Assembly: GCA_964419355.1 (NCBI GenBank)
Contig: CAYQOZ010000003.1
Coordinates: 1-41,263 of the forward strand
Direction: 5' to 3'
DNA from: an uncultured Candidatus Cloacimonadota bacterium
GTDB taxonomy: Bacteria > Cloacimonadota > Cloacimonadia > Cloacimonadales > TCS61
Length of the DNA: 41,263 nt
The notes below the pieces were generated by a model that had not been told where the DNA came from, ran no database searches, and saw only the letters and a program-made list of their open reading frames with translations. Every line of letters begins with the position of its first letter. The first letter of the stretch is position 1. A program made the translations under genes and the position numbers. Shown one piece after another: positions 1,963-39,215 of this stretch.

Positions 1963-1992
1963 CGAAAAAAATAATCTCTCTTTTGTTGTCAA
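1963..1992 (-). promoter_or_regulatory. Putative promoter pointing into the cassette block
   Basis: Minus strand TTGACA-N18-TTTTCG, the same layout as nine other intergenic sites in the window. Confidence 0.5.
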
Positions 1993-1996
1993 ATAA

Positions 1997-2887
1997 TTAC
2001 CCTAACTTTGAGCGTTTAATAAGGTACTGCAATAAATTTTCTTCGAATGGGGTTGCGGTCGTTATCGGATTGTATTCGATGAAAGATTCGTGGCATTTTG
2101 TTTTGAGGTATTTCACGTTATTGTCGTATTCATTCAAATAATCTTTTTTAATTTGCCACGGGTTTACAGTGATTTTTTCGTTAGTTTCGGCATCGATAAA
2201 CTGAGTTTCTCTCTTAAAATCAAATTTAGTTTCCTGCTTATCTTGGATGTGGAATAATATCACTTCGTGCTTATTATGTCTGAAATGTTGTAGTCCATTC
2301 AAAATATTTTTTGGCTCATCGATCATATCAGAAATGAGAATAATGAGACTTCTCTTTTTTATTTTATCTGCTAAAGTATGCAGAATGTCCAAAGTTTCAG
2401 TCTTATTTTGTGGCTGTAGATTGTGAACATTTTTAAGAATCTCATTCAGGTAAGTTCGCATTGAGCGAGGTGGAATGTAATTCGTAATTTTGTTTGTGTA
2501 GGTTAGCAAACCAACTGCATCTTGTTGGGAAATCATTAAATAAGAGAGTGCAGAAGCAAGAGCTTTTGCATATTCCAATTTAGATATTTTTTCAGAAGTA
2601 TAACCCATAGAAGCACTATGATCAAGAATGATATATGATTTTAGATTTGTCTCTTCTTCGAATCTTTTAATGTAATATCTTTTGGTTTTGGCATAAACTT
2701 TCCAATCCAAATTTTTGATAGAATCACCCGGAATATATTGCCGATGATCAGAGAATTCAGCGCTAAAACCGTGGTAAGGCGATTTGTGTAAACCTGTGAT
2801 AAATCCTTCTACAATCAGGCGTGCTCGCAAATTAAATTTATCCAAGTTGACGATAAATTCATTAGAAAGAAAATCTTTTTTTGTCAT
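1997..2887 (-). CDS. DUF58 (MoxR-associated vWA-like) protein
   Basis: G.HKSPYHGFSAEFSDHRQY.PGD, DWKVYA, KRFEEETN, ILDHSASM, ILISD. Confidence 0.93.
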   Translation of the reverse strand: MTKKDFLSNEFIVNLDKFNLRARLIVEGFITGLHKSPYHGFSAEFSDHRQYIPGDSIKNLDWKVYAKTKRYYIKRFEEETNLKSYIILDHSASMGYTSEKISKLEYAKALASALSYLMISQQDAVGLLTYTNKITNYIPPRSMRTYLNEILKNVHNLQPQNKTETLDILHTLADKIKKRSLIILISDMIDEPKNILNGLQHFRHNKHEVILFHIQDKQETKFDFKRETQFIDAETNEKITVNPWQIKKDYLNEYDNNVKYLKTKCHESFIEYNPITTATPFEENLLQYLIKRSKLG

Positions 2888-2902
2888 CAGTTATTTGTAA
2901 AA

Positions 2903-3088
2903 TTACTCATCATTATGTTTATTCATTCCAATAATTATCGCCATCGGAAATAAAACCACATAAGAAATTATTAACAATATCGGTGAGATTGTTTTGTCGC
3001 CAGTTCCCATAATTATATAACCGATTATAGTTACGATTATGGCGATGATTAACAAAGTTGCGTTGGTTTTTGTAAAAACGAATTTCAT
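2903..3088 (-). CDS. Small two-TM membrane protein (DUF3098-like)
   Basis: Two hydrophobic helices (IIGYIIM; TISPILLIISY). Start moved to ATG 3088 because GAGGT lies upstream of it. Confidence 0.7.
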   Translation of the reverse strand: MKFVFTKTNATLLIIAIIVTIIGYIIMGTGDKTISPILLIISYVVLFPMAIIIGMNKHNDE

Positions 3089-3098
3089 AATTACCTCT

Positions 3099-4985
3099 TT
3101 ATTCTTCATTAAAATATTTTTCGATTAATTCGATTGAGTTTTTCACAGCATTTTCGTTATTATCAATTAAAATTGTTTTTCGAAAATATTTTTCTGCTTC
3201 TTCCATATTATTTAATTTTAGATAAATTTTTCCTAAATGAAAAGTGATTTCGCTGTGTTGTAAATTTTTTTCGAGTGGAATTTTCATCGTCGAAAGAGCT
3301 TCTTCAAAACGGTTTGTTCGATATAAAAGCCAAGCATAACTATCCCAAATCATCGCATCTTCTGGTTTAATTTGAGTAGCTTTTATCAGCATTTCTTCCG
3401 CCATTTCATATTTGGAAGCGATTTCATTATCGGCAATTGTATAAGCAAGGCTATTCATTATTGCGGCATTATTCGGATAAAGTTTTAAACTTTCTTCAAG
3501 AATTTGGATAATTTTATTTAATTCAAGAAATTCTTTTGAAATCATCGAAAATAACAAAAAAGTTTCAGAAGTGGGCTTTTCAGCATTTTCTATTTCATTG
3601 AGCAAAATTTCAAATGCGATTTTATCTTTTCCGACATCCAATAATATTCTGGAAATAACTTCATTTACAGGAATTTCTAAATTGTTAGAGTTTTCTAAAA
3701 TATTTCTTGCTTTATCAATTTCGGAAGAATTTATAAGGTAAATCATTGCCACAAATAATTGCAAATTATTTTCCTGAATATAGTCTTCCGACAGCATTTC
3801 CAAATGCTCGATGGCTTTGTTATTTTCCTCAAAATCTGAATAAAAATTGGTGAGAATATAATTAGCATTATCAGATTGTTTTGTATTTTGCTTATATTTT
3901 AAGAAAAGATTTTCCAATTTATCCTTACTAAAATTGCTATCAAAATATGACATAAATCTATCTAAATAATTAATATCATTAACTTTGTCAAGCGTGTGAA
4001 ATGCTTCTTCATCAGAATTATTTAATAATAACATCGCAGAATAGGAACTGTAAAAAAAATGTAGAAATTGACCTGATAAATCATTAATTTCTTCTAATTT
4101 TTTTGCGATTTTAATTCCTAATTCCGCATTTTTCACCATTGTAGCGGATACAAACATATGTTTCAAAATAGATTTATTTCCAATATTAAAACATCTTTCG
4201 GCATTTTGCAAAATTTTATCAAAATACAAAAATTCGAATAAGCGTTCGACATAATAAGTCATCAGTTGGTCTGGCACATTTTCGTTATTTGCCAATCGAT
4301 TATCAATAATTTCTATAATCTCATCAATCTTTTTTTCTTTATCAAAATAGCGAATCAATTCGATTAATGTATCTTCGTTATTCCAAATGAGATGAGCTTT
4401 TTTTAGAATTTCATATTCAATTTTAGGATCAATTTCGTGATAAAAATGGGCCATTTGCAAAACGCTATCTTGGTTATTCCATGTTAATTTTCGGGCTCGA
4501 TTTAAAAGTGATGTATCTTGTATTGCAAGAACCTCTAATTGAAATTGATAGTAAGAGAGCAGGTTTACAAGATTAGCTTCAAGATCAATTGCCAGTTTGA
4601 AATATTTTTTGGCTTTTTTATTGTTTTCAGATTTCCAATTTATATGTGCCAAAATCTTAATCATGTTAGCAGAATAGAGTTTTTCAGCATAATATTTATC
4701 GCCAAGTTCTATCAATTCTTTTTCAATATTTTTATCGAACAGAGCTTGAAGATAGAGAATTTCCACTAATTTTTCTTTGATGTAAATATTATTCGGTGCA
4801 GCAGCATCTGCTTGTTTGAAATATTTAATAGCTAATTCAAATTCACCATTTTGCATCGCTGTTTCAGCAAAAGTAAAGTAGTTGATAGACGCGAGATTAA
4901 CTTGAGCAGGATTGTCTATTTCGGCTGATAGAGCTACACCTCCGAAAAAAATCGGAATTAGTAAATATAGAAATCCTTTTTTCAT
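3099..4985 (-). CDS. Exported TPR-repeat protein
   Basis: Signal peptide. TPR-like C-terminus NSLAYTIA...WDSYAWLLY...FHLGKIY. Confidence 0.85.
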   Translation of the reverse strand: MKKGFLYLLIPIFFGGVALSAEIDNPAQVNLASINYFTFAETAMQNGEFELAIKYFKQADAAAPNNIYIKEKLVEILYLQALFDKNIEKELIELGDKYYAEKLYSANMIKILAHINWKSENNKKAKKYFKLAIDLEANLVNLLSYYQFQLEVLAIQDTSLLNRARKLTWNNQDSVLQMAHFYHEIDPKIEYEILKKAHLIWNNEDTLIELIRYFDKEKKIDEIIEIIDNRLANNENVPDQLMTYYVERLFEFLYFDKILQNAERCFNIGNKSILKHMFVSATMVKNAELGIKIAKKLEEINDLSGQFLHFFYSSYSAMLLLNNSDEEAFHTLDKVNDINYLDRFMSYFDSNFSKDKLENLFLKYKQNTKQSDNANYILTNFYSDFEENNKAIEHLEMLSEDYIQENNLQLFVAMIYLINSSEIDKARNILENSNNLEIPVNEVISRILLDVGKDKIAFEILLNEIENAEKPTSETFLLFSMISKEFLELNKIIQILEESLKLYPNNAAIMNSLAYTIADNEIASKYEMAEEMLIKATQIKPEDAMIWDSYAWLLYRTNRFEEALSTMKIPLEKNLQHSEITFHLGKIYLKLNNMEEAEKYFRKTILIDNNENAVKNSIELIEKYFNEE

Positions 4986-4991
4986 ATAATT

Positions 4992-5765
4992 TTAGAAAGT
5001 CATATTGTAGAGCAATGTCAATGACCTGTCACTACCAGAAAAATTAGTTTTATTGTTTTGGAGAATGTCTAAAAAAGAGATTTTTAAGATTATGGATTCA
5101 GTGAAATGAATATCAGCTGAAGCATTTAGATAGCCTTTCCCGTCAGCACAACCAAGGTTTTCATCTATTTGGTCAATGAATTTTTCCTCATCATCGTTCC
5201 AAGCAAAATCATATTCACATAAAAGATTTATGACATCACCGATTGTTTTATCAATTCCTAAGAATACATTTATATCTTTATCATCACCATCTTCTCTGCT
5301 CTCGATATTTTTATTTAACCCCAAATGTGTTCCTAAATTTCCAAAAAATGCCCAATTTTTACTGGCAACCAAATAAGCCCCTTTTGATTTAATATCGTAT
5401 CGGTTTATCTCGTCAATATAATTTCCGTGACCTTGTGAATCATATCCCAAAGCAACTGCCGGATATTTTGCAGATTCGTCTAAAATGCGTAATTTGGCAT
5501 TAAATTCCACTCGTTTATGCCATTCTGGAGATATATTTCCAACAAGTTGTTCCGCACCATAACTTACCCCAAACATAAAACGCGGAAATAAACCAACTTT
5601 AGCTCCGAGCAAAAGTCCATTATTTTTGTAAATTTTAGCTGATATTTCGTATTCACCTTTTTGCAGGATTCCGGCGGTGGGGGTATTAATTAAATTATTT
5701 AATTCAAACGAATATGCAAAACGGGAAATAACCAGAACAAGAACGAATAAAATGATTTTTTTCAT
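4992..5765 (-). CDS. Putative outer-membrane beta-barrel (YjbH-like)
   Basis: Signal peptide, LINTPTA.IL motif, amphipathic strands, PAVALG, terminal Y..TF. Confidence 0.65.
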   Translation of the reverse strand: MKKIILFVLVLVISRFAYSFELNNLINTPTAGILQKGEYEISAKIYKNNGLLLGAKVGLFPRFMFGVSYGAEQLVGNISPEWHKRVEFNAKLRILDESAKYPAVALGYDSQGHGNYIDEINRYDIKSKGAYLVASKNWAFFGNLGTHLGLNKNIESREDGDDKDINVFLGIDKTIGDVINLLCEYDFAWNDDEEKFIDQIDENLGCADGKGYLNASADIHFTESIILKISFLDILQNNKTNFSGSDRSLTLLYNMTF

Positions 5766-5839
5766 ACTACACTCCTCGATAATTTTTTGCTAAATTTAAA
5801 CAACAATGTTTACAAAATTTCATCATAAATATTTGTAAC

Positions 5840-5893
5840 CCAAAAAAAGAATCTTGAAAAAGCTTGCAATAAATTTATTGAAAAATCTTTTAG
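5840..5893. promoter_or_regulatory. Putative divergent promoters sharing a palindromic TTGCAA (5864-5869)
   Basis: Plus strand TTGCAA-N18-TTTTAG. Minus strand TTGCAA-N18-TTTTGG. Confidence 0.45.
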
Positions 5894-5985
5894 GATTGAT
5901 TGTTTTTTTGAAATATGAAAGTAATATTTTGTAGATTAATTGGCGAGGAAAAATAAGAAAATAGATTATTTTTAAAGGAGAAATT

Positions 5986-7995: not shown

Positions 7996-8630
7996 TGGGC
8001 ATAACTTTTTTTGAAAAACAGAATTTTTTATTGAAGTTATTGTGGGTTTTTCTCGGTATTATTTGCTCGGCTTTCGCCGATATTCACGCCATTCTACTCA
8101 TTTTTCTGACAACATTTATCTATCTATTGTTTGCCCCAAAATTAATTTTATTTTGGCTTCGTGGTTTTTTAAAAATAAGCCCATTTTTTATCTCAATATT
8201 TCTTTTTGGAATTTTTTTTAATATTTCATTTATTTCACAACTTGTTTTGGTCGGAAAAATTTTATTAATTTTGTTATTTTCGGTCTATTTTACCGCAACA
8301 ACAAAAGTTGAAGATTTTCTTTCTGACATTATTTTTTTACCTCAAAATAATTTTATGAGAAATTTGCGCATTTTTTTAATTTCGACATTTCGATTTGTTC
8401 CACTTTTTTTGGAACAGTATAAAATAGCATCCGCGAATTATGAAAATTATTTTCAGATTGCCAAAATAGCACTTCAAAACAGTTTTTGGAAAATTCATGA
8501 AGTAGAAATTTATACATTACAAAAGTTAGAGAATATAAAAATTCGAGAATTTCAGATATTTCCGAATTTGGTTCTTGTCTTTATTCTCATTTTGTATGGA
8601 ATAATTATTTGCAATTTTGATTTATTTTAG
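7995..8630 (+). CDS. Polytopic membrane protein, possibly EcfT/CbiQ-like
   Basis: About five hydrophobic segments. FTATTK and STFRFVP resemble EcfT motifs. TAATG coupling to the upstream gene. Confidence 0.55.
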   Translation: MGITFFEKQNFLLKLLWVFLGIICSAFADIHAILLIFLTTFIYLLFAPKLILFWLRGFLKISPFFISIFLFGIFFNISFISQLVLVGKILLILLFSVYFTATTKVEDFLSDIIFLPQNNFMRNLRIFLISTFRFVPLFLEQYKIASANYENYFQIAKIALQNSFWKIHEVEIYTLQKLENIKIREFQIFPNLVLVFILILYGIIICNFDLF

Positions 8631-8633
8631 GAA

Positions 8634-10853: not shown

Positions 10854-10998
10854 TAATACTCCTTTTTTCAATAAGTTTATCAGAATCTTATTCCAAAATT
10901 AATTTTTTAATTTTGAAGTAAAGTTTTTTATTCGACATTTTAAAGAATGTTTTGAATTTCGAGTTCTCAGCATATCAAAAAAAACATTAAAAAGCAAA

Positions 10999-11028
10999 CA
11001 AATCTTTAAAATATTAGCATTTTTGCAA
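10999..11028 (-). promoter_or_regulatory. Putative bamA promoter
   Basis: TTGCAA-N18-GATTTG on the minus strand. Confidence 0.4.
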
Positions 11029-11036
11029 AATCTTAG

Positions 11037-11066
11037 TTGACGCATTTAAGCAGATTCATTTTTTGT
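11037..11066 (+). promoter_or_regulatory. Putative promoter of the dapA remnant and downstream ORF
   Basis: TTGACG-N18-TTTTGT. Confidence 0.45.
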
Positions 11067-11093
11067 ATAAACGAATGCTATCGGGGAGGTAGT

Positions 11094-11216
11094 ATGATTC
11101 AAGATTCGTATGTTGCATTAGTTACGCCTTTCAAAAAGAATGGCATTGATTATTTAGCACTTGAAAATCTAAAAAGACTAATAAAAGCGATGAAAAAATA
11201 TAAATTGAAAAAGTAA
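11094..11216 (+). pseudogene. dapA: dapA (4-hydroxy-tetrahydrodipicolinate synthase) remnant, 40 codons
   Basis: Strong SD GGAGGT. Translates MIQDSYVALVTPFKKNGIDYLALENLKRLIKAMKKYKLKK*. The N-terminus is the DapA-family VALVTPF..G.IDY.AL signature. The catalytic core is absent. Confidence 0.7.
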
Positions 11217-11222
11217 AGAAAA

Positions 11223-11609
11223 TTGAGAAAGAGAAATTTAAGACAAAACAAAAATGTAATCATTTGCCCGAAGTCAAAACAATTTACAGATATAATTGTT
11301 TGTGCGGCAAATTGTGCTGAAAACAGATATTGTGAAGAATATCGAAAGAAAATTTCGCTCGATATTCTATTAGATTTTGTGGAAGCACATCCAAATTACA
11401 AGTTAATAGGAGAACTTATGGCTACCAAAGAAACTAAGAGTAAAGAGACGAAACTCTGGATTATGAACAAAGATAACCAGGTTGAAGAGATTACGGAAAA
11501 AGAAGTTTTGAATAATCCGCAAAAATATATCAAAGCTCAAATTTGGGACAAACCTACTTTCAAATATGAAGTTATCATCAAGCTGAAGCGCGTGCGAGTA
11601 GAAGATTAA
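11223..11609 (+). CDS. Hypothetical protein with a 4-Cys N-terminal region; possible internal start at 11418
   Basis: CP...CAANC...YC. In-frame ATG at 11418 is preceded by AGGAGA. Confidence 0.65.
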   Translation: MRKRNLRQNKNVIICPKSKQFTDIIVCAANCAENRYCEEYRKKISLDILLDFVEAHPNYKLIGELMATKETKSKETKLWIMNKDNQVEEITEKEVLNNPQKYIKAQIWDKPTFKYEVIIKLKRVRVED

Positions 11610-11626
11610 AAAATAATATTGAATAA

Positions 11627-17406: not shown

Positions 17407-17658
17407 CTATTCGCTAGCCTTAAGCTTTTGTTGATAATCTTTCAAACTTTTTAGTTTTGCTTCTGTTTTAGAAAGCTCCGTTTCCAAATCGCCTTTGCTT
17501 GCTTCCAATTGAATAGCTTTTTTCTCTTCTTTAATAGCTTCGTCTTCTGCCGTATCCAGTTGAATTTTTGTAACTGGAGGTGGAGGAGGCGTGCAAGCTG
17601 TCAAAAGAAAAGATGCTATGATCACTAAACCGAACAATACATTCATTGTCTTTTTCAT
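17407..17658 (-). CDS. Small coiled-coil lipoprotein
   Basis: Lipobox LTA-C, PPPPP linker, heptad-like helix. SD GGGAGA. Confidence 0.85.
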
Positions 17659-17695: not shown

Positions 17696-17725
17696 ACGAA
17701 TTGAAAGGAATGCTTATACTGTCAA
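17696..17725 (-). promoter_or_regulatory. Putative promoter of the lipoprotein-LysM operon
   Basis: TTGACA-N18-ATTCGT. Confidence 0.5.
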
Positions 17726-27458: not shown

Positions 27459-27542
27459 AGCAACCTCCCAATAAATAATTATGAATCCTTTTAGTTGAGG
27501 CATACAATTTCTTGCAAGCAATTTTTTAGATTCTTTTTCTTC

Positions 27543-30020
27543 TTAAATTTTTTCACCAATCACATCTTGGTAAATTCTATAAATATCATCATTGAAGCAG
27601 ATAAAAATAACTTTCTCAATTGTAACATTCTCTTCCAAAAAGGATTTAACATTTTTCACTGCTATTTCTGTAGCTCTACGAACTGGAAATCTATAAACAC
27701 CGCAACTGATTGCAGGAAAAGCAATTGTGGAAAGATTATTCTTTATAGCCAGTTGCAAACTTCTCTGATAACAATTCGTAAGCAATTCATCTTCTCTATT
27801 TGAACCGCCGTGCCAAACAGGACCAACAGTATGGATTACATTTTTTGCGGGCAGATAATATCCTTTCGTGATAACCGCATCACCGGTTACACAGCGTCCA
27901 ATTTTTCTACACTCTTTTCGCAATTCAATTCCAGCGGCACGGTGAATGGCTCCATCAACACCACCACCACCCATCAAGGTATTATTGGCGGCATTTACAA
28001 TAGCATCTACTTCTAATTTTGTAATGTCTCCTTTGATAATTTGAATTCTATTTCTAAGTGCTTTTTTCATCTCTTTGTAATAGATAAGAACTTCTTTTCC
28101 TTTTGGAGTAATCCTATATTTTTGATTGGAACTTTGCGGTTTTCTTGGAATTGTGTAAGTTGCCAACTTTTTTCTGCGAATAGAAGAAAGAGCTCTTTTG
28201 AGATTTCCTGCTTTTTTATCTTTACCCAAAATATCTGTTATTTGTGCACTAGAAAGCATATTATCTTGAATTGCTTGCAAAATATTTATTTGAATACTCG
28301 GTAACTCTGGAAAAACTACAAATTTGTTTTGATGACCAATTTTTTTAAGAATTTGGTTTGTATCTCTTGTGTTGCTCATTTTTTTGTAATAATTTATCAA
28401 GCCGTTTGTTGATTGGTCATGAGTTTTTACAGTCTTCTCATTTTTTAGTTCGGGTAGGATATTTTGTGCAAGCTGTTTTCCCAATTCCACTCCCCATTGA
28501 TCAAAACTGAAAATATTCCAGATAACTCCTTGCACAAAGATTTTGTGTTCATACATAGCGATTAAACTTCCCAATGTATGCGGAGTTAGTTGATTAAATA
28601 AAATGGAATTTGTAGGATTATTTCCCGCAAAAGTTTTGTATGGAATTAGAATGTCAGCATCTTCTTGCTTCATTCCTGAACTGTATAATTTTGCTTTAAC
28701 TTCTTTTGCTGTTTTGCCCAACATTAGAGCTTCGGTTTGAGCAAAAAAATTTGCCAAAAGCTTTTGATGATGGTCGCCGACAGGATTATGAGTAGAAATA
28801 GATGCCAGAAAATCACATGGAATCATCTTTGTGCCTTGATGAATAAGCTGGTAAAAAGCGTGTTGTCCGTTTGTTCCCGGTTCACCCCAAACGATTGGTC
28901 CCGTTTCGTAAGAAACTTGATTACCACTTCGGTCTATAGATTTTCCATTACTTTCCATATTTCCCTGTTGGAGATAAGCAGTAAATCGATGCAAATATTG
29001 GTCATATGGTAAGATAGCTTCAGTTTCCGCTCCAAAAAAATTGTTATACCAAATGCCAATCAAAGCAAGAATGACAGGAATATTTTTATTGAAATCGGTA
29101 TTTTTAAAGTGCTGATCCATCGCATAAGCACCTTCCAATAATTCCTTAAGATTTTCAAATCCAATCGAGCAAGAAATTGCCAGACCAATCGCACTCCAAA
29201 GTGAATAACGACCTCCTACCCAATTCCAAAAAACAAACATATTTTCGAGATCGATGCCAAATTCCTTCACCGCTTTTTCATTGGTGGAGATAGCCACGAA
29301 ATGCTTCTTAATAAACTCTTCTTTTTTGGCGTGCAATAAAAACCATTTTCGGGCAGTTCTAGCGTTTGTCATAGTTTCTTGCGTGGTGAAAGTTTTAGAA
29401 GCTATTAAAAACAGCGTGGTTTCCGGATCAATTTTTTTTAGAATTTCCACAATATGCGTGCCATCAATATTGGAAACAAAATGGGATTCGATGTTTATTT
29501 TTTTATAGGGTTTTAATGCTTCTGTTACCATCAGAGGTCCTAAATCGGAGCCACCAATTCCAATATTTACGATGTCGGTAATTGCTTTACCAGTAAAGCC
29601 TTTCCAATGTCCGCTCGTAATTTTTTCGGAAAATATTTTCATCTGCTGAAGCACTTTTTGTATTTTTGGTTTGATATTATTATGGTCAACAATTGTTGGC
29701 GTGTCCGAACTATCTCGCAAAGCTGTGTGCAACACGGCTCTCTTTTCAGTTTCATTAATTTTTGCACCACAAAATAGGTCGTTAATTGCATTATCAAGCT
29801 CAACTTCTCGGGCTAATTTGATGAGAAGTGAAAGTGTCTCTTTGGTGACTATATTTTTGGAAAAATCTACCAAAATGTCTTCAAAAATGAGTGAAAATTT
29901 TTCAAATCTCTTTTTGTCATTTTGAAAAATATCTTTCATTTGAACATTTTTCATTCGCTGAAAATGTTCTTCCAAGTTCATCCAAGCCATTGTTTTAGTG
30001 GGGTTAATCTTCTTTAACAT
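27543..30020 (-). CDS. pgi: Glucose-6-phosphate isomerase fused to winged-HTH and MacroD macrodomain
   Basis: aa 1-548 PGI ([54 protein letters not shown]). aa ~549-650 wHTH-like ([16 protein letters not shown]). aa ~651-825 macrodomain ([36 protein letters not shown]). Confidence 0.9.
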
Positions 30021-30033
30021 ATAGTTTTACCTT

Positions 30034-30195
30034 TTAATTGATTTTAGAAAAGGATATCCTACTTTCACTAATTACATTTTCTTCAGCATCAGTAACTTGG
30101 GGAACTGTTTTTGAATCTCTTTCTACACCATCGATTGCACCAGTCAAAACAGTCAAGAGTAAGATAACAAGAATCAACAATAATACCTTTTTCAT
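30034..30195 (-). CDS. 53-aa small exported or membrane protein (not in ORF track)
   Basis: SD AGGAGA. Translates MKKVLLLILVILLLTVLTGAIDGVERDSKTVPQVTDAEENVISESRISFSKIN*. The stop is 13 nt before the pgi ATG. Confidence 0.7.
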   Translation of the reverse strand: MKKVLLLILVILLLTVLTGAIDGVERDSKTVPQVTDAEENVISESRISFSKIN

Positions 30196-30223
30196 TTAAA
30201 TCTCCTAATTTTTACATCTTCAC

Positions 30224-30296
30224 CGAAAAAAATGTGCCCTAACTTTTTGGCAAGAATTATTTTTATTTGACCAAATTAGCTTAATTCAAAATCTGT
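30224..30296. promoter_or_regulatory. Putative divergent promoters (pgi operon and C25 peptidase)
   Basis: Minus strand TTGCCA-N18-TTTTCG (30253-30224). Plus strand TTGACC-N18-ATCTGT (30267-30296). Confidence 0.5.
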
Positions 30297-30326
30297 CATC
30301 AAAATTAATAAATTTGGAGATTTAGA

Positions 30327-33300
30327 ATGAAAAAAATATTTTTATTATTATTGTTGCTACCAATTTTTATTTCGGCAATTAATGTTGAAATTGAACGACC
30401 ACAACTTTTTGGAAATCACTTCACGAATGAATTACCAAAAATGATGAATATTGGCGAGCCAGCGATGCCATTTGTACCCATCAAAATTTTATTGCCGATG
30501 GGCGAAGAGTTGGCTGAAATTTTTGTTGAATTTGGTGATGAAAAAACTTTAGCAGGTTCGCATTACATTGATTTTGCACGTCAGCCGCAACCATTTTCAC
30601 AACCAACTTTTGATGCGACAGAGCCAAATAACGAAATTTACAAAAGCGAAAAATATTTTCCAAATAATAATTATGAAATTCTTGGAACGCAAACTTTTAA
30701 AGGCTATAATTTGCTTTTGGTAAATTTGTTTCCTTACAAATATTCGCCGAAAAATGGAAACATTATTTGGTTTGAAAATGTGGAAATTTCGTTTTCGACA
30801 ACACCAAATTTAGATTTGAAAAACCAACAAAATGAGATGCTAATTTCTAACGACAAAACAAAATCAAAAATCAAAAATATTATTATAAACTCAGAAAACA
30901 TAAGAAGTTACCAAAAAGAATATTTTTCTAAAAACCGTAGTTTGGTGAGTTCGGAAAATCCGTTTGAGATGATTATTATCACCGATGCGGAATGTGAACC
31001 ATATTTTGCGGATTTCATCGATTGGAAAGCAACTCACGATATCTCTGCCACCACTTTTTTAACTTCCGATATTTACGCAGAATATGAAGGCATTAACAAT
31101 CAAGAAAAAATCAAAAATTTTATTCGAGATGCGTTCATCACATTTTCCGCTACTGAAACACCTCTTGAATATGTCATTTTGGGCGGTGATGATGAAATTG
31201 TTCCCATTCGCACAGTTTGGATAGATACGGGTTTTGGCTACACCGATGCCAGTATGCCTTCCGATTTGTATTATGGTTGTCTCGACGATAATTGGGATGA
31301 TAATGAAAATGGAACTTATTGTGAGTTGGAAGATGAACCCGACATCATTCCAGATGTTACGGTTGGCAGATTTCCGGCTGAAACCGAAACAGAATTTGCC
31401 AATATTTTCAATAAAACATACGATTACATTGAAACGACAAATGTGAGCAACGACATCGCTTATATGGTGGGTGAAAATTTGAATTGGGATCCGGTAACTT
31501 GGGGTGGTGATTACAATGATGAAATTTTGGATTCTCTCCCTACTTTTGAAGATGATTATCATGTTTTCAAACTTTATGGACGCGAGGGAACTTACAGTCC
31601 ACAAAATGTAAAAGATGCAATAAACAACGGCTTGAGCATCATAAACCATATGGGACATTCCAACGAATCTATCGTTTTTGGACAAAACATAGGCTCAGTG
31701 AATAGCTACACAAATACAGAATTTGGGTTTGCTTACACCCAAGGTTGTTACCCTGCCGCCTTTGATGAAATGACAAGTCAGCAAGGTGAAAGTATTGCGG
31801 AAAATTTGGTGAAAGGTGAACGTGGTTTGTACGCTTTTGTTGGCAATACGCGTTACGGTTGGTACATGCCCGGCAGCACTGATGGACCTTCTCAACCTTA
31901 CGATATAGAATTTTTCGTGGCAATTTTTAATAATAATATTCGCCAACTTGGAAAAGCACTTGATGAATCGCGTATAATTTTGGCAAATACGGCTTTACAA
32001 TATGGATGTAATCGCTGGGTACATTTGGAATTAGTGCTTTTTGGTGATCCCTCTATTGCCGTAAAAGAACCGATTGGTGCGTTCCCGTTTATCCAACCAT
32101 ATTTGGTGGAATTTGATGATTCCCAAACTGGTGATAGTGATGAAACGTCAAATCCGGGTGAAAATATTGAAATCAATGTAGTTTTGGAAAATTTGGAAGG
32201 TTGGGCGGATGCGACTGATGTTGGTGCGATTCTTACCTTCGAAGATAATACAATTCAAATTTTGACGGGTGAAGTTTCTTATGGCAATATTGAGAATGGA
32301 ACGCTTGGCACTGCTTCTCCATTTCTCATCTCAATTCCGCAAGATTGCAATTATGACTCTTATAAATATACTGTTACCGTTGCCGCACCCGTTACCGAGA
32401 ATTCCTACTTTGAACGCTCTTACGATTTTGATTTGCAGATTTCACTATTTCAACAAAATTGGCCTTGGGCAGCATCTTCCACAGTTCTTGGAAATCCAAT
32501 CATCACCGATTTTAATGAAGATGGAACGAGTGATATTTTAATTGTTGATGCAAATTCAAACATAAATTTATTGAATATTGATGCAGAACAACATTCTGGT
32601 TTTCCGCTGAATGGCGACTCTGGTATTTGGAAAAGCATCGCATTTGGGGATATCAATAATGATGAAAGTTCAGAAATTATTATTGCAAATCGTGATGGTG
32701 AAATCATCGCAATCGATAATTATGGAAACGAAATTTTTAATAATGCCGAATGTTGCGAACAACTTCTCACTCCGATAATTGCCGATGTGAATGGTGATGA
32801 AAATATGGATATCATTAGTTTTGGCATGAATAAAATGTTGAATGTTTTGGATAATTCTGGGAATATGTTGCCGAATTTTCCAATTGAATTTTCTTCCATC
32901 TCTTTGAATGAAATGGCTTCTGTCGACTTCGATGAAGATGGTAAAAATGAAATTTTAATTGGTATCTCTTCTCCAGGAATTTTGCACGCTATAAATCATT
33001 TAGGCGAAAATATTGCCGATTTTCCGGTCGAATTTTCAGCCTCACTTTGCTCGGCACCGATTGTGTTGGATAATCTGAAAATTGCGGTGGGAACTTCTGA
33101 TAACAAAATTCATCTCATCGATAATTTGGGCAACATTCTGTTTACAAAAAATTTGAATGGAAGAGTCGTGAAATCTGCCATTGCAACCGATTTCGACAAT
33201 GATGAAGTCTTGGAAATCGCTTTTGCAACAACAAATGGTGAACTTCATATCATCAATCAAAATGGCGAATATTTGAACGGTTGGCCAATTGACATTGATT

Positions 33301-33929
33301 CTTCAATTCCAAATGCACCAATTTCTGCCGACATAAATAATGATGATTTTGCCGATTTACTCTGCTTCAATTCATTGAGCGACTTTTTTGCATTTGATGC
33401 AAATGGTATCGAATTTGATTTCGCACCAGTCCCGATAGGTCTCATCGGAAATACGCCTGCCAGTATTGAAGATATTGATGGAGATGGCGATTATGACATC
33501 ATTGCCGGCACCACGACGGGAGCGATTATTATCGATTGTAAACTTCCTAAAGGTGAGAAAATTCCGTGGAATACATATCGTGGGAATTTGTGCAGAACTG
33601 GATTTTATGGTGATAATGAAATATTCACAAATGTAAATAATAACGAATTGGAAATAACGAATTTCAATTTGCAAAACTATCCAAATCCATTTAATGATGC
33701 AACTACTATTTCGTTCACATTAAATGCTGAAAATACTAAAAAAGCCGAAATTGAAATTTACAATATAAAGGGACAGAAAGTGAAAACTTTTCCCAATCTC
33801 CAAATCACGAATTCACCAAATTTCCAAATAGTTTGGAACGCCAAAAAATTCTCATCTGGTATCTATTTTTACCGTCTAATTGCAGATGATAAAATTATAA
33901 AAACAAAAAAATGTTTGTTGATAAAATAG
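30327..33929 (+). CDS. C25 (gingipain-like) cysteine peptidase with FG-GAP-like repeats and a T9SS-like C-terminal domain
   Basis: Signal peptide, propeptide GEPAMP, YVILGGD..IVP, SDLYY, VGRFP, NHMGHS, QGCY, LFGDP. Repeated D(I/F/V)(N/D).D motifs. NYPNPFN...YNIKGQKV...SGIYFY. Confidence 0.9.
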   Translation: MKKIFLLLLLLPIFISAINVEIERPQLFGNHFTNELPKMMNIGEPAMPFVPIKILLPMGEELAEIFVEFGDEKTLAGSHYIDFARQPQPFSQPTFDATEPNNEIYKSEKYFPNNNYEILGTQTFKGYNLLLVNLFPYKYSPKNGNIIWFENVEISFSTTPNLDLKNQQNEMLISNDKTKSKIKNIIINSENIRSYQKEYFSKNRSLVSSENPFEMIIITDAECEPYFADFIDWKATHDISATTFLTSDIYAEYEGINNQEKIKNFIRDAFITFSATETPLEYVILGGDDEIVPIRTVWIDTGFGYTDASMPSDLYYGCLDDNWDDNENGTYCELEDEPDIIPDVTVGRFPAETETEFANIFNKTYDYIETTNVSNDIAYMVGENLNWDPVTWGGDYNDEILDSLPTFEDDYHVFKLYGREGTYSPQNVKDAINNGLSIINHMGHSNESIVFGQNIGSVNSYTNTEFGFAYTQGCYPAAFDEMTSQQGESIAENLVKGERGLYAFVGNTRYGWYMPGSTDGPSQPYDIEFFVAIFNNNIRQLGKALDESRIILANTALQYGCNRWVHLELVLFGDPSIAVKEPIGAFPFIQPYLVEFDDSQTGDSDETSNPGENIEINVVLENLEGWADATDVGAILTFEDNTIQILTGEVSYGNIENGTLGTASPFLISIPQDCNYDSYKYTVTVAAPVTENSYFERSYDFDLQISLFQQNWPWAASSTVLGNPIITDFNEDGTSDILIVDANSNINLLNIDAEQHSGFPLNGDSGIWKSIAFGDINNDESSEIIIANRDGEIIAIDNYGNEIFNNAECCEQLLTPIIADVNGDENMDIISFGMNKMLNVLDNSGNMLPNFPIEFSSISLNEMASVDFDEDGKNEILIGISSPGILHAINHLGENIADFPVEFSASLCSAPIVLDNLKIAVGTSDNKIHLIDNLGNILFTKNLNGRVVKSAIATDFDNDEVLEIAFATTNGELHIINQNGEYLNGWPIDIDSSIPNAPISADINNDDFADLLCFNSLSDFFAFDANGIEFDFAPVPIGLIGNTPASIEDIDGDGDYDIIAGTTTGAIIIDCKLPKGEKIPWNTYRGNLCRTGFYGDNEIFTNVNNNELEITNFNLQNYPNPFNDATTISFTLNAENTKKAEIEIYNIKGQKVKTFPNLQITNSPNFQIVWNAKKFSSGIYFYRLIADDKIIKTKKCLLIK

Positions 33930-33938
33930 AAGGATGAT

Positions 33939-34157
33939 GTGAAAGGAAAAGTAAAGTGGTTTGATGAATCCAAGGGTTACGGTTTTGTGCTGACTGAAAA
34001 TAATGAGGAATATTTTGTTCATTGGAAATCAATCGTAACCGCTTCCGACCGAAACAGAAAGTTTTTAGTCGAGGGCGAAGACATAAATTTTGATCTATTT
34101 GAAACAGAAAAAGGGATGCAGGCTATCAATGTGGTGCGACTGCTTCCACAAGAGTAA
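33939..34157 (+). CDS. Cold-shock domain protein
   Basis: GKVKWF...KGYGF, FVHW, L.EGE.I.F, KG.QA.NV. Confidence 0.93.
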   Translation: MKGKVKWFDESKGYGFVLTENNEEYFVHWKSIVTASDRNRKFLVEGEDINFDLFETEKGMQAINVVRLLPQE

Positions 34158-34224
34158 TTTTAGTCTCAATTCAGCATAATTACAAACAATTATAACAATT
34201 AAATCCAACATTTAAATTGTAAAA

Positions 34225-34251
34225 TTAGCACTCATATGTAAAGTCTGCTAA
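34225..34251. promoter_or_regulatory. CIRCE element 1
   Basis: TTAGCACTC-N9-GTCTGCTAA versus consensus TTAGCACTC-N9-GAGTGCTAA. Confidence 0.85.
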
Positions 34252-34259
34252 AAAATAAT

Positions 34260-34289
34260 TTGACAATTAAGATTAGTTTATTAAATTGT
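34260..34289 (+). promoter_or_regulatory. hrcA operon promoter
   Basis: TTGACA at 34260-34265 between the two CIRCEs, then N18-AATTGT (or N16-TAAATT). Confidence 0.65.
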
Positions 34290-34295
34290 CCTCAG

Positions 34296-34322
34296 TTAGC
34301 AAATAATGAATTGGAGTGCTAA
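34296..34322. promoter_or_regulatory. CIRCE element 2
   Basis: TTAGCAAAT-N9-GAGTGCTAA. Confidence 0.85.
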
Positions 34323-34338
34323 TAAAAAAAGGTGAAAA

Positions 34339-35391
34339 ATGAAAAAAACAGAATTAAGAAGAAAACAGGTTTTGATGCATTTGGTGGAGGATTATATCCA
34401 GAATGTTGAACCTATTCCTTCTCAAATGATAAGTGATAAATATATTACAGATATTAGTCCAGCAACTATTAGGATAGACTTGAGCAAACTTGAAAAAGAG
34501 AGTCTTATTTTTCAACAACATACTTCCGGTGGAAGAATTCCTACCATAAAAGGATATCGACAATATATCAAAAATATTACCCCGCAAATCGAAAATGTGG
34601 GTTACGATAAAGTGGATATTTTACGCAATCTACTGATAAAATATTACAAAGATACTCCGCTGGCACTTCACTATATAATGCAGCTTTTGGCGAAAGAGAC
34701 AGACCAGCTTAGCTTTGTAGCAGAACCAGAAATTTCGCACGGTTCACTAAAAAAATTAGATGTTTTCAAAATTTCAGAAGATAAATTATTATTTGTGATA
34801 AGTTTGGATTCGGGACTCGATAAAACTGTGATTTTAAAATGCGATTACAATATTAGCGAGCAACAATTGCGAGCATTGGTTAGGTATGTAAATGAAGAAT
34901 TTGCCGGATTGAGAATTTTTGATATTCAGGATAGATTTCTTGATAAAATTTCCGAAGATTTGAGTGAAGAGAATAAATTATTGAAAGCGTTTTTAGACGA
35001 ACTTCAAAATGCATTTTCCGAAATAAGTAGCTTTTTCATCCATTTTGATGGCAATATAAGTTTTTTGGAACAGCCTGAATTTGATGATAAAAGTTCTATT
35101 TTAAGTTTTCTCGGTTTTATGCAAAGACAAGACCATCTCATCAAAATAATGCAGAAAAATGAAAGCGATAAAAAGTTCAATGTTCTGATGGGAGAAGAAC
35201 TTGGGCAACCCAGCCTTTCCAATTATTCACTAATATTTTCCAAATATGAGCTTTTTGGAGTTCCGGGTTATTTGGGTGCGTTGGGTCCGATTCGAATGGA
35301 TTACAAAAAAAATATTCCAATTATTCGCAATATTGCGGAAGTAATAACAAATACAACGAGAAAAGGAATGGTGGTTCCAGAAAATGGCTAA
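34339..35391 (+). CDS. hrcA: Heat-inducible transcription repressor HrcA
   Basis: SPATIR, HTSGGRIPT.KGYRQY, LGPIRMDY. CIRCE upstream and grpE downstream. Confidence 0.95.
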   Translation: MKKTELRRKQVLMHLVEDYIQNVEPIPSQMISDKYITDISPATIRIDLSKLEKESLIFQQHTSGGRIPTIKGYRQYIKNITPQIENVGYDKVDILRNLLIKYYKDTPLALHYIMQLLAKETDQLSFVAEPEISHGSLKKLDVFKISEDKLLFVISLDSGLDKTVILKCDYNISEQQLRALVRYVNEEFAGLRIFDIQDRFLDKISEDLSEENKLLKAFLDELQNAFSEISSFFIHFDGNISFLEQPEFDDKSSILSFLGFMQRQDHLIKIMQKNESDKKFNVLMGEELGQPSLSNYSLIFSKYELFGVPGYLGALGPIRMDYKKNIPIIRNIAEVITNTTRKGMVVPENG

Positions 35392-35926
35392 AAAGAAAAA
35401 AGATAAGGTGTTAGAAGAAAAAAAAGAACTTTCTTTAGAAGAGAAGTATGAAAATTTGGCTGAAGAAAATAATGAACTGAAAGATAAACTTCTGCGTCAT
35501 GTTGCTGAGTTTGAAAATTTTCGCAAAAGGTCTTTCACAGAAAAATCAGATTGGATTAAAAATGCGAATGAAAGGTTGGTTTTGGAAGTTTGTGATGTGC
35601 TCGATAATTTTGAGCGTGCACTCCATCCCAATCTAGAAGAAATGGAGACAGAAGCATTCCAAAAAGGTATTGAATTAATTTATCAGCAACTTGATAATTT
35701 AATCAAAAAAGAGGGTGTGAAAAAAATTGAAACAAATGGTCAACTGTTTGACCCAAATGTGCATGAAGCTCTTGCTCACATACCTTCCGAACTTAAAGAA
35801 AATGAAATTGTCGCCGTTATTCAAAATGGTTACAAGATGAATGAAAAGATTATCAGACCTGCACGCGTTGCAGTTTCAAATGGTGAAAAACAACAAATAG
35901 AAAAAAAACAAAAAGGTAAAAAATAG
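35384..35926 (+). CDS. grpE: Nucleotide exchange factor GrpE
   Basis: AEFENFRKR, LDNFERAL, FDPNVHEA, Q.GY.....IRPARV. Confidence 0.96.
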   Translation: MAKKKKDKVLEEKKELSLEEKYENLAEENNELKDKLLRHVAEFENFRKRSFTEKSDWIKNANERLVLEVCDVLDNFERALHPNLEEMETEAFQKGIELIYQQLDNLIKKEGVKKIETNGQLFDPNVHEALAHIPSELKENEIVAVIQNGYKMNEKIIRPARVAVSNGEKQQIEKKQKGKK

Positions 35927-35935
35927 GAGGATATT

Positions 35936-37900
35936 ATGGGAAAAATTATTGGCATTGATCTCGGAACAACAAACTCATGTGTAAGTGTGATGGAGGGCGG
36001 AAAGGCGACCGTTATCCAAAATGCAGAAGGAACAAGAACGACTTCATCGGTGGTGGCGTTCACGAAAGACAAAGAAAGATTGGTTGGGCAAATTGCCAAA
36101 AGGCAAGCAGTTACTAACCCAAAAAACACAATTTCTTCCATCAAAAGATTTATGGGAAGACAGTTGAACGAAGTTGGTTCGGAAGTAAAAAGTGTGAACT
36201 ATCAAATCAAAGGTGGAAAATCTGGTGAAACAGTAGTTCATATTGATGTAGAAAATAAGGATTTCACACCGCAAGAAATTTCGGCAATGATTCTTGTAAA
36301 GATGAAAGAAACTGCGGAAGCGCATCTCGGTCAAAAAATTACGGAAGCAGTGGTTACGGTGCCAGCATATTTTAACGATGCACAAAGGCAAGCGACAAAA
36401 GATGCAGGCAAAATCTCCGGTCTTGATGTGAAAAGAATTATCAATGAGCCGACTGCTGCCGCTCTTGCTTATGGTCTCGAAAGTAAAAAAGAGGAAAAAA
36501 TTGCAGTTTACGATCTTGGTGGTGGAACTTTTGATATTTCCATTCTCGAAGTTGCAGAAGGTGTGGTAGAAGTGCTATCTACAAATGGCGATACTCATCT
36601 TGGTGGAGATGATTTTGATAAAATCGTTATGGATTGGATTCTTTCTGAATTCAAAAAACAAGAAGGTGTGGATATTTCTAACGACCCGATGGCTCTTCAA
36701 AGAATTAAAGAAGCGGCAGAAAAAGCTAAAATTGAACTTTCTGGAACGCAAACCACAAACATCAATTTACCGTTTATTACAGCAGATGCGAGTGGTCCAA
36801 AACATTTGAATTTGAATCTTTCACTCGCCGAATTTAATAGAATGACAGCAAATCTTATCGCTCGTTCTATCGAACCTTGCAAAAAAGCTCTCAAAGATGC
36901 AAAACTCAGCGTTGGTGAAATTGATGAAATTTTGCTCGTAGGTGGAAGCACAAGAATTCCAGCAGTTGTGGAAGATGTGGAAAAATTCTTTGGCAAAAAA
37001 GCGAATAAAAGTGTGAATCCAGATGAAGTTGTAGCAGTTGGTGCGGCAATTCAAGGTGGCATTTTAGCTGGCGATGAAAATTTGAGCGATATTTTACTTC
37101 TTGATGTAACTCCACTCTCTCTTGGAATTGAAACTTTGGGTGGTGTGATGACATCTCTCATCGAAAGAAATACTACTATTCCAACTAAAAAGAGCCAAAC
37201 TTTTAGCACTGCTGCCGATAATCAACCAGCGGTCTCAATCGTTGTTTTGCAGGGTGAGCGTTCGATGGCAAAAGATAATCGCAGACTTGGAAATTTTGAA
37301 CTTACTGGAATTCCACCAGCACCACGCGGAATGCCACAAATTGAGGTAACTTTTGATATCGATGCAAACGGTATTTTGCATGTTCATGCCAAAGATAAAG
37401 GAACCGGAAAAGAGCATTCTATCAAGATTGAGCGAACTGGAACTTTAGATGAGAATGAAATCGACAGAATGGTAAAAGATGCAGAAGCACACGCAGATGA
37501 AGATAAAAAGCAGAAAGAATCTATTTTGGCTCAGAATGAACTTGATACGCTGATTTTCTCGACCGAAAAAAGTATAAAAGAATACGGTGATAAACTGAAA
37601 GACGATGAGAAAAAACAAGTGGAAGACGCTATCGAAGATGCAAAAAAGAAGCTTGAAGAACTCACAAAACAGTCTGCTTCCAAAGAAGAATACGAAGCTG
37701 TTCGTGATGAATTGGCAGAAAAAGCGAAGAAAATTGGCGAAATCATTTATGCGGAAATGCAAAAACAGCAATCAGCCCAAGGTGCTCCAAATATGAATGA
37801 TGCTAATTTTGATCCAAGTAAAATGGCTGGACAGCAAGAATCAAAGAAGGATGACGGTGCTGTCGATGCAGATTTTGAAGTAGTTGACGAAGATAAATAA
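35936..37900 (+). CDS. dnaK: Chaperone DnaK
   Basis: [48 protein letters not shown]. Confidence 0.99.
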
Positions 37901-37908
37901 AATTTAAA

Positions 37909-37942
37909 AAATCCTTCCCGATAATTTTTTCGGGAAGGATTT
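37909..37942 (+). terminator. Stem-loop between dnaK and dnaJ (terminator or mRNA stabiliser)
   Basis: 13-bp stem AAATCCTTCCCGA / TCGGGAAGGATTT with a weak U tail. Confidence 0.7.
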
Positions 37943-37967
37943 ATAATCTTAACAACAGGAATTTTAA

Positions 37968-39125
37968 ATGGCAAAAAGAGATTATTATGAAGTTTTAGGT
38001 GTTGGGAAAAACGCTGATAATGCTGAAATAAAAAAGGCATATCGCAAGCTCGCAATGAAATATCATCCCGATAAAAATAAAGATAATAAAGCGGCTGAAG
38101 AGAAGTTCAAAGAAGCTTCCGAAGCTTATGAAGTGCTCAGCGATGCAGACAAAAAACAGCGTTATGACCAATTTGGTCATGCCGGAATGGAAGGTGCTTT
38201 TGGCGGTGGTGGTTTTAGCTGGGATAATTTTTCCCATGCTTCCGATTTTTCTGACCTTTTTGGTGGAGAAGGTTTGGGCGGAATTTTTGAACATCTTTTC
38301 GGTGGTGGATTTAGTGGTGGTGGAAGAAGTAGGCAACAAACAAATCGTGGGGAAGACCTGCAAATTTCTCTTTCATTAACTCTAGAAGAGATTTCTAAAG
38401 GTATCGAAAAAAAAATAAAAATAGGAATTCAAGACGTTTGTGATAGTTGTAATGGAAGTGGCTCGCAAGATGGAAATATCGAAACTTGTGGACAATGTCA
38501 CGGCTCGGGACGGGTGCGACAAATGACTCGTTCACTTTTTGGTCAGATGCAAACTATTGTAGAATGTCCTTCCTGTAATGGGAAAGGAAAAATTATTAAA
38601 AATAAGTGTAATAAATGTCGCGGAGATGGAAGAATTAAGAAAATCAAAACTGTAAAAATTACGATTCCAGCTGGAGTTTCTGAAGGTCAATATATTCGTC
38701 TGAGAGGAAAGGGAAATGTTGGTATGCAAAATGCTCCAAAAGGCGATATTCTCGTTTACATCAAAGAAAAAGAGCACAAAATTTTTGAGCGCAATGATGC
38801 AAATATTGTCTGTGAATTTCCGATTAGTTTTTCTCAAGCCGCTCTTGGAAGCGATATAGAAGTTCCTACTTTATCTGGAAAAATAAAAATGAAAATTCCT
38901 GCCGCTACGCAATCGGGCAAAATTTTTCGATTGCGAGCTCAAGGGTTACCACATGTTAATAGCACTTATCGTGGTGATCTTTATGTGAAAGTGATAGTGA
39001 TAACTCCCACAAGATTGAATGCGGAAGAAAAAAAATTATTGAATCAGCTATCAAAATTTGATTCGGATAAAAAATTGCATCCCGAAAAAAGTTTCTTCAA
39101 TAAAATGAAAGATTTTTTTGTGTGA
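37968..39125 (+). CDS. dnaJ: Chaperone DnaJ
   Basis: J domain with HPD, G/F-rich region and four CxxCxGxG repeats. Confidence 0.98.
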
Positions 39126-39142
39126 TGATTAATTTGTTGATT

Positions 39143-39169
39143 AAAGCGACTGAACGGTCGCTTTTTTTT
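39143..39169 (+). terminator. Intrinsic terminator of the dnaK operon
   Basis: AAAGCGAC-tgaacg-GTCGC followed by T8. Confidence 0.8.
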
Positions 39170-39185
39170 GTGCACAAAAAAAAGG

Positions 39186-39215
39186 TTGCAATAAATATTA
39201 GCATTTTAATTTTCG
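39186..39215 (+). promoter_or_regulatory. Putative promoter of the M1 peptidase
   Basis: TTGCAA-N18-TTTTCG. Confidence 0.45.

Follow-up and report, generated by a model that had tools for sequence, protein, structure and literature searches.

The stretch of DNA analysed here, called the window below, is a contig of 41,263 nucleotides (nt) from an uncultured bacterium of the phylum Cloacimonadota; it is the 41-kb contig C3 of genome G000 (1.72 Mb, 203 contigs, ~33% G+C). In a preliminary description of the window, ten intergenic sites had been reported in which a -35-like hexamer is followed, after 18 nt, by a T-rich hexamer with G instead of TATAAT, and a hybrid consensus read by a divergent primary sigma factor had been proposed. 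Our analysis of the whole genome indicates that the pattern is real for the sites of the TTGAC type and spurious for those with TTGCAA, and that it represents a clade-wide variant of the sigma-70 promoter, a view which is computationally well supported. When the first T of the -35 box is taken as position 1, the genome-wide architecture consists of a near-invariant (c)TTGACA, A24, T26-28, G29 or G30 and often C31. The same pattern was found in three genomes belonging to two orders of the phylum, and it also precedes the genes for transfer RNA (tRNA) and transfer-messenger RNA (tmRNA). The best explanation, to which we give a probability of about 70%, is that these sites are the housekeeping promoters of this bacterium and are read by an ordinary long RpoD.

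Genes were called with our own simple scorer based on open reading frames (ORFs), codon usage and ribosome sites, which yielded 1551 genes (92.6% of the genome), and the upstream set was made of the 512 gaps of at least 40 nt (324 co-directional and 188 divergent). In the 324 co-directional upstream regions, TTGACA was by far the most strand-biased hexamer, with 106 sense versus 8 antisense occurrences. Its density per kb was 2.44 upstream in sense, 0.13 in antisense, 0.56 in convergent gaps, 0.22 in coding sense and 0.14 in coding antisense DNA, and a calculation by hand from the base composition alone leads to about 0.34. The hexamer was found in 176 of the 512 upstream regions, at a median distance of 67 nt from the start codon, and only 2 near-duplicates occurred among the 182 TTGACA sites. 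The -35 columns of the weight matrix described below were T100, T98, G93, A86, C95 and A75 (in %). The genome thus carries the gene-oriented TTGACA box that is characteristic of canonical sigma-70 promoters; instead of the short or weak -33 element (TTG or TTTG) of the Bacteroidota type, the full TTGACA was the strongest oriented hexamer. In the same upstream DNA, no sense bias was displayed by TATAAT (29 sense, 36 antisense), TA...T (1266 and 1525) or the complete TAnnTTTG box (45 and 50).

The sequences which follow the -35 box were then counted at fixed offsets. Among the 259 sites anchored on TTGAC, the departure from background composition (T 35%, G 15%, C 12%) spans positions 26 to 31, with T26, T27 and T28 in 51, 57 and 65% of the sites, G29 and G30 in 31 and 41%, and C31 in 33%. 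A G at position 29 or 30 was present in 110 of the 182 TTGACA sites (60%, versus 27% expected from composition, p 5e-21), and the same test at other offsets of these 182 sequences gave a mean of 24% and a maximum of 36%. T28 was detected in 126 of them (69% versus 35%) and TTT(n)G inside positions 25-31 in 54, two control offsets giving 14 and 6. In the 259 TTGAC sites, TT.G peaked at exactly two offsets (36 and 49 sites; 9 at most elsewhere) and A..TT, alone among the patterns with an A, had a positional peak, at A24-T27-T28 (65 sites; 36 at the next offset). No positional peak of TA followed TTGAC in this set, and the Bacteroidota-like TA..TT[TG]G reached at most 2 of the 259 sites at any offset. 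A canonical -10 box was likewise not observed: TAnnnT at spacers of 16 to 18 occurred in 18 of the 182 TTGACA sites (10%), which is the background level and bears out the lack of TATAAT seen at the ten window sites. The spacer itself is A-rich, then C/G-containing, with C/G enriched at positions 13-16 genome-wide.

As a control, about 390 kb of a metagenome-assembled genome (MAG) of Bacilli with 25% G+C (locus L007) was analysed with the same scripts. The sense and antisense counts were 11 and 13 for TTGACA, 97 and 63 for TATAAT, and 102 and 35 for TGnTAnnnT, and TAnnnT followed 11 of 21 TTGAC sites (52%). Since TAnnnT was recovered in this control genome, the method is able to detect a canonical -10 box where one is present.

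Two complete genomes of the phylum were analysed over 400 kb each, G003 from another family and G002 from another order. In G003, TTGACA was found 30 times in sense and 3 times in antisense (TATAAT 19 and 35), with G at 29 or 30 in 33 of 48 sites and T28 in 25 of 48; the corresponding values in G002 were 30 and 1 (TATAAT 10 and 10), 28 of 54 and 30 of 54. The tRNA genes of both relatives present the same promoter layout. The 33 tRNA and tmRNA genes of G000 form 23 transcription units by our own count, and TTGAC lies within 120 nt of 12 of these, in 10 cases between 37 and 59 nt before the mature 5' end. These sites carry the T-run and G at positions 26-30, as in the tRNA-Lys promoter (...AGTTTGGC), and one TTGAC stands only 37 nt before its tRNA, so that a -10 box could not be accommodated further on. 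The presence of the signature in two other genomes of the phylum, together with its position upstream of tRNA and tmRNA genes, therefore argues for a housekeeping promoter. Two further features were observed at stable-RNA promoters (G000 contigs C14, C18, C44, C50, C81, C86 and C88, and the tRNA loci of G002 and G003): a spacer in which CC comes after an A-run, for example AAAACC at about positions 8-15, and a CTCG(T) motif close to where transcription would begin.

The tmRNA gene was followed across the phylum, and TTGAC was found within 130 nt of it in 27 of 30 genomes. T28 was present in 21 of these 27 promoters, G at 29 or 30 (as GTC or GGT) in 18, and TAnnnT at positions 23-28, which corresponds to a 16-bp (base-pair) spacing, in 16 (TAGTTT, TAACTT, TATTTT, TATATT). 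This promoter likely sets the register, with position 23 as -12, 24 as -11, 28 as -7 and 29/30 as -6/-5. The T-rich hexamer ending in G would then correspond rather to the 3' portion of a weak -10 element at 16-bp spacing (A24, T27, T28), followed by a G at -6/-5. In the mechanism that we propose, sigma region 4.2 would bind TTGACA, and a 16-bp spacer would lead to a weak -10 element in which A24, present in about half of the sites, would be -11 and T28 would be -7, with T at -8/-7 and -12 unconstrained. The G at -6/-5 would add a contact of the kind made between sigma region 1.2 and G-rich discriminators, and would occupy the place of the terminal G of the Bacteroidota TAnnTTTG box, with transcription starting near position 35. 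Such a promoter population would lean mostly on the -35 box, letting the -10 element stay weak.

Five genes of the sigma-70 family were found in G000. One of them encodes a 581-amino-acid (aa) protein which passes the NCBIfam RpoD model (584 bits for a cut-off of 555), and all five genomes of the phylum that were compared (5 of 5) encode an RpoD of 579-581 aa that includes an N-terminal region. Compared with E. coli sigma-70 chains, the core of its regions 2.3-2.4 shows two differences, both conservative (S/A and A/S around ITR); region 4.2 (VTRERIRQIE) is identical to that of E. coli sigma-70, and region 1.2 (DPVRMYLSEMG) closely resembles the E. coli DPVRMYMREMG. All five genomes conserve these segments. 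The protein is, in this respect, a group 1 sigma factor with the conserved regions 2.3-2.4 and 4.2 of the canonical type, and the idea of a divergent primary sigma factor did not survive the inspection of regions 2.3-2.4 that had been proposed with it. Nor was RpoD replaced by a short unusual primary sigma factor in any of the five genomes. A search for RpoD-related loci gave only two loci, labelled as Oscillospiraceae and Bacilli MAGs, and the Bacilli genome is the one that served as the control above. In the first (L006, labelled uncultured Oscillospiraceae MAG), the best aligned segment of RpoD is 61% identical to that of G000, with matches spanning residues 8-575; this is surprisingly close for a Firmicute and the contig may be mis-binned.

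The motif displays in full neither the set of features defining Bacteroidota promoters nor that of canonical sigma-70 promoters. In the published work, the Flavobacterium primary-sigma box is TAnnTTTG at -12 to -5, with a variant TAnnTTGY (PMC9723704), its spacing is quoted as TTG-N17-23-TAnnTTTG (10.1101/172254), and Bacteroides promoters combine TAnnTTTG with a -33 TTTG in the absence of the classical boxes (PMC7366714); the work of Bayley 2000 and Vingadassalom 2005 on Bacteroidota promoters is cited there through PMC7366714 and PMC9723704. The Cloacimonadota sites resemble these in the absence of TATAAT, in a T-run which ends in G in the -10 region, and in the position of this G, which stands at a distance of 30 nt, counted from the initial T of the TTG upstream, as it would in TTG-N19-TAnnTTTG, 19 being within the N17-23 range given in 10.1101/172254. 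The tmRNA promoters TAGTTTGTC or TAACTTGTC also fit the Flavobacterium variant TAnnTTGY. They differ in the -35 box, which is weak or undetectable in Bacteroidota and a complete and dominant TTGACA in Cloacimonadota, in the TA of the box, which is unconserved genome-wide in G000, and in the sigma factor, short and unusual in the former and a long canonical RpoD in G000. The genes of G000 are also preceded, unlike those of Bacteroidota, by strong Shine-Dalgarno sites of the GGAG type. Cloacimonadota and Bacteroidota belong to the same superphylum and both carry type IX secretion; the type IX secretion genes and the Shine-Dalgarno sites would fit a relative of Bacteroidota standing outside that phylum.

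With the canonical sigma-70 promoter (TTGACA-N17-TATAAT; E. coli, Bacillus), the sites have in common the -35 consensus and the AT-rich DNA before it, regions 2.3-2.4 and 4.2 of RpoD, short leaders and the TAnnnT kept at the tmRNA promoter. They depart from it in G000 by the frequency of TAnnnT (10%, at background, versus 52% in the Bacilli control), by an apparent spacer of 16 bp instead of 17 and, in the predicted register, by T instead of A at -9/-8 and an enrichment of G at -6/-5. A third point of comparison is Chlorobaculum tepidum, for which a differential RNA sequencing study gives the RpoD motif TTG-N-TA[ATC][ATC][AT]T and an RpoD clustering with Bacteroidota sigma factors (10.1101/172254). 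This relative of Bacteroidota also has a -10 box unlike those of E. coli and Bacteroides and keeps an upstream TTG, but it retains the TA and lacks the terminal G, and the RpoD of G000 is instead of the proteobacterial type. A further analogy is offered by the G-rich discriminator. Sigma region 1.2 is said to contact it (Feklistov 2006, Haugen 2006), with GGGA reportedly found after the -10 box in Thermus and a G at -5 in E. coli rRNA (ribosomal RNA) promoters. By analogy, a G placed right after the -10 hexamer may act as an extra contact in G000, where it would be a population-wide consensus base, whereas in Thermus and E. coli it is an occasional booster beside a strong TATAAT.

On these grounds, the hybrid consensus first proposed is retained in part: TTGACA is coupled to a T-rich..G element without TATAAT, genome-wide and in two relatives, but the full TAnnTTTG box is not enriched. 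It is a tentative proposal, with a real but minor chance of being right, that a Bacteroidota-like -10 element (A-nn-TT-(T)G, the G being at -6/-5) is preferred to TATAAT throughout a phylum whose RpoD is fully canonical. The same sites could also be ordinary sigma-70 promoters in which the T-run and the G reflect a bias of composition or of the discriminator, play no part in recognition and have nothing Bacteroidota-like about them, the strong -35 box having let the -10 drift. Such a bias would be in agreement with the canonical RpoD, with the TAnnnT which 16 of the 27 tmRNA promoters retain at 16-bp spacing, with TATAAT-like boxes at the RNase P RNA genes of family f3 (see below), with the unenriched TAnnTTTG box and with the little information held by positions 24-31, about 1.8 bits summed in the matrix. 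However, drift should decay to the background (A 38%, T 35%, G 15%) and not to G 41% and T 65-72%, the T28 and G29/30 signal is positionally sharp and common to three genomes of two orders, and TT.G is confined to its two offsets, so that we consider this explanation unlikely.

A second sigma factor of G000 deserves attention at this point. It is a 287-aa protein with regions 2-4 (L002:973-1836(-), contig C21), whose region 2.4, WWIKQKILFALAEK, we take to resemble that of the Bacteroidota primary sigma factor, and the motif might be read by this protein as a counterpart of that short factor. Sigma factors of 287-293 aa with regions 2-4 occur in 4 of the 5 genomes, the counterparts in G003, G019 and G045 having 289-293 aa. 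The protein nevertheless falls below every NCBIfam primary-sigma cut-off (best match the RpoS model, 208 versus 379 bits), whereas the 581-aa protein passes the RpoD model. Moreover, no sigma factor of 287-293 aa was found in the complete 1.58-Mb genome G002, which retains the promoter signature (TTGACA 30:1, G29/30 in 28 of 54 sites) and matching tRNA promoters. Since the short sigma factor is absent from a genome in which the signature is kept, we assign the motif to RpoD, by which it would be read, and regard recognition by the 287-aa factor as very unlikely.

A weight matrix was trained iteratively on the upstream regions of the whole genome, contig C3 being left out, and was applied to the sense regions and to controls, in columns of 324 regions or chunks each, matched in length. 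At 10 bits or more, 115 sense, 11 antisense, 2 shuffled and 5 coding members of these columns were retained, and at 12 bits or more 94, 4, 2 and 2; at 6 bits or more, the antisense, shuffled and coding columns still gave 40, 21 and 30. The sense counts are circular, the matrix having been trained there, and it is the control columns that give the false-positive rate. The possibility that the sites are an artefact of by-eye picking in AT-rich DNA was considered with these data. It holds for TTGCAA, which is palindromic, is found at 0.54 per kb upstream versus 0.99 per kb in coding DNA and shows no downstream signal (T28 33%, TTTG 5%), and 6-12% of the controls reach 6 bits. For the TTGAC sites, an artefact is refuted by several results, namely the bias in strand, the signal at a fixed distance, the controls made of shuffled, antisense and coding sequences, the Bacilli genome and the recurrence in relatives, and as an explanation of the whole pattern it is highly improbable. 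As for TTGACA with its downstream G being the operator of a global DNA-binding regulator, nothing specific speaks for it beyond the fact that short oriented intergenic motifs can be operators, and a motif found in a third of all upstream regions and 37-59 nt before mature tRNA and tmRNA ends, which contains the known target of a sigma region 4.2 intact in the G000 RpoD, makes it barely credible.

Several observations weigh against the assignment of these sites to RpoD-dependent housekeeping promoters in the form given above. The -11/-7/-5 register was derived from two things only, the tmRNA footprint and the distance to the -35 box; a search for sequencing runs matching window positions 30001-40000 listed no RNA run. 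Only 50-55% of the sites have A24, and T23 is at background, which is odd beside a canonical region 2.4. As the sites were gathered by TTGAC anchoring, promoters with other -35 boxes fall outside the description. Two expectation-maximization runs with free offsets failed to sharpen a -10 motif; their likelihood was far above that of shuffles (177 versus 31; 215 versus 33-49) and the motif was still fuzzy, and fixed-offset counts were used instead. The gene calls rest on a crude, self-made ORF caller, related genomes cannot be counted as independent, and the tmRNA promoters all represent one orthologous site. Finally, the RNase P RNA gene was tried as a start-site proxy and rejected, because most copies directly follow a gene; TTGAC lies within 90 nt of it in only 3 of 30 loci. 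In several genomes of family f3, a TATAAT, TATATT or TATTAT box stands 6-10 nt before the RNA without TTGACA, and a canonical -10 box can therefore serve the polymerase when the -35 box is poor. The f3 RpoD can evidently read a canonical -10 box, and the lack of TATAAT is a trait of the promoter population, not an inability. In most of the 30 genomes (L102-L131), the RNase P RNA gene was observed directly behind a small gene whose product ends CxxC...CGRI, with which it is probably co-transcribed before being processed.

In the window, the letters of the ten sites are all present as written; in each, the gap is of 18 nt and a G stands at position 29 or 30, and by our ORF-based gene calls all ten face a gene start. 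Their number has to be reduced to nine independent -35 boxes, 5864(+) and 5869(-) sharing one palindromic TTGCAA. Six of them (1992-, 30267+, 34260+, 11037+, 17725- and 30253-) score 12.7-19.4 bits, and the four TTGCAA sites (39186+, 5869-, 5864+ and 11028-) score 0.7-8.2 bits. The genome-wide pattern extends to the TTGAC-type sites and not to these four, whose hexamer is neither enriched nor followed by any signal. Ten sites of the window reach 12 bits or more, namely the six intergenic ones and four intragenic ones, 3991(-), 7988(-), 27165(+) and 31846(-), which score 12.4-15.0 bits and are internal promoters or false positives.

The genes carried by the window include bamA, ybeY, a recB-like helicase gene, ruvB, a pgi-macrodomain fusion, hrcA-grpE-dnaK-dnaJ and the aminopeptidase N gene, together with a gene of 1200 aa (30327-33929(+)) whose large product bears a sorting domain for type IX secretion. 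The best-scoring site of the window, with 19.4 bits, is the promoter-like site at 1963..1992(-) (TTGACA 1992-1987, TTTTCG 1968-1963), which faces the gene 1485-1814(-) from a distance of 178 nt to its start codon (1814). No Rfam family matched the leader behind this site (window 1815-1996), and tRNA-Val was the sole match of an Rfam scan of the whole window. The site at 17696..17725(-) (TTGACA 17725-17720, ATTCGT 17701-17696) faces the gene 17407-17658(-) and scores 13.5 bits, almost wholly from its -35 part, the -10 part contributing -1.2. Two promoter-like sites are placed back to back further on. The first, 30224..30253(-) (TTGCCA 30253-30248, TTTTCG 30229-30224; 12.7 bits), faces the pgi-macrodomain gene and the second, 30267..30296(+) (TTGACC 30267-30272, ATCTGT 30291-30296; 16.9 bits), the type IX sorting-domain gene. 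In the former gene, glucose-6-phosphate isomerase and a C-terminal macrodomain were found in a single ORF of 825 aa (27543-30020(-)), of which residues 655-823 are matched by an O-acetyl-ADP-ribose deacetylase model.

The predicted promoter of the hrcA-grpE-dnaK-dnaJ operon, at 34260..34289(+), is composed of TTGACA (34260-34265), 16 nt, TAAATT (34282-34287) and GTC, and scores 14.6 bits; a reservation made in the preliminary description, that TAAATT at 16 nt also fits hrcA, had pointed to the right register. Two inverted repeats, which we take to be CIRCE-like (controlling inverted repeat of chaperone expression), surround this promoter and lend it local support. One, TTAGCACTC-N9-GTCTGCTAA at 34225..34251(+), stands just upstream of the hrcA -35 box, and the other, TTAGCAAAT-N9-GAGTGCTAA at 34296..34322(+), starts approximately 2 nt downstream of the transcription start that the register predicts. 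On contig C15, a TTAGCACTC arm was seen to overlap the T-run/G position of another TTGACA promoter.

The promoter-like site at 11037..11066(+) (TTGACG 11037-11042, TTTTGT 11061-11066; 13.6 bits) faces a short ORF of 40 codons, which lies directly after it at 11095-11217(+) and has a strong GGGGAGG ribosome site; the start of this ORF (MIQDSYVALVTPF...) presumably resembles the N-terminus of dihydrodipicolinate synthase and the ORF may be a gene remnant. The neighbouring site proposed for bamA at 10999..11028(-) (TTGCAA...GATTTG) was found to be unsupported, with 0.7 bits, and a better candidate for the bamA promoter is located at 10893..10922(-), where TTTACT (10922-10917) is followed by AATTTTGG (11.9 bits). 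The palindromic TTGCAA at 5864..5869, which had been counted twice, scores 7.3 bits as 5869(-) and 6.5 bits as 5864(+); a TTTACA site at 5809(+) scores 9.1 bits. A weak candidate of 8.2 bits at 39186..39215(+) (TTGCAA 39186-39191, TTTTCG 39210-39215) faces the aminopeptidase N gene at 39242(+), with 1.0 bits for the -35 part and 6.0 bits, above the 99th percentile (4.28), for the -10 part.

Our search of the published literature revealed nothing on promoters of Cloacimonas or Cloacimonadota, and nothing was found on promoters of Fibrobacter; in a start-site survey of 49 genomes (PMC12641261), "Cloacimon" does not occur in the main text and the lineage key has no such phylum, as far as these parts of the survey are concerned. 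No member of Cloacimonadota is genetically tractable. A usable consensus lets the starts of operons be annotated in bacteria which are abundant in digesters and sediments, and provides a design rule for expression tools. The mismatch of interest is that between a canonical sigma region 2 and promoters which lack T-12 and TATAAT and favour a T-run followed by G. If it is confirmed by experiment, the cause of the Bacteroidota-type -10 box would become separable from the Bacteroidota-type sigma factor. If the preference tentatively proposed above for a whole phylum is true, the "TTTG" preference of Bacteroidota would not be due to their short sigma factor but would be older and common to the superphylum, and it would be set by something else, such as region 1.2, the core RNA polymerase or the conditions of DNA melting. 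Cloacimonadota would then be an intermediate form surviving today, with promoters that stand between the types of E. coli and Bacteroides.

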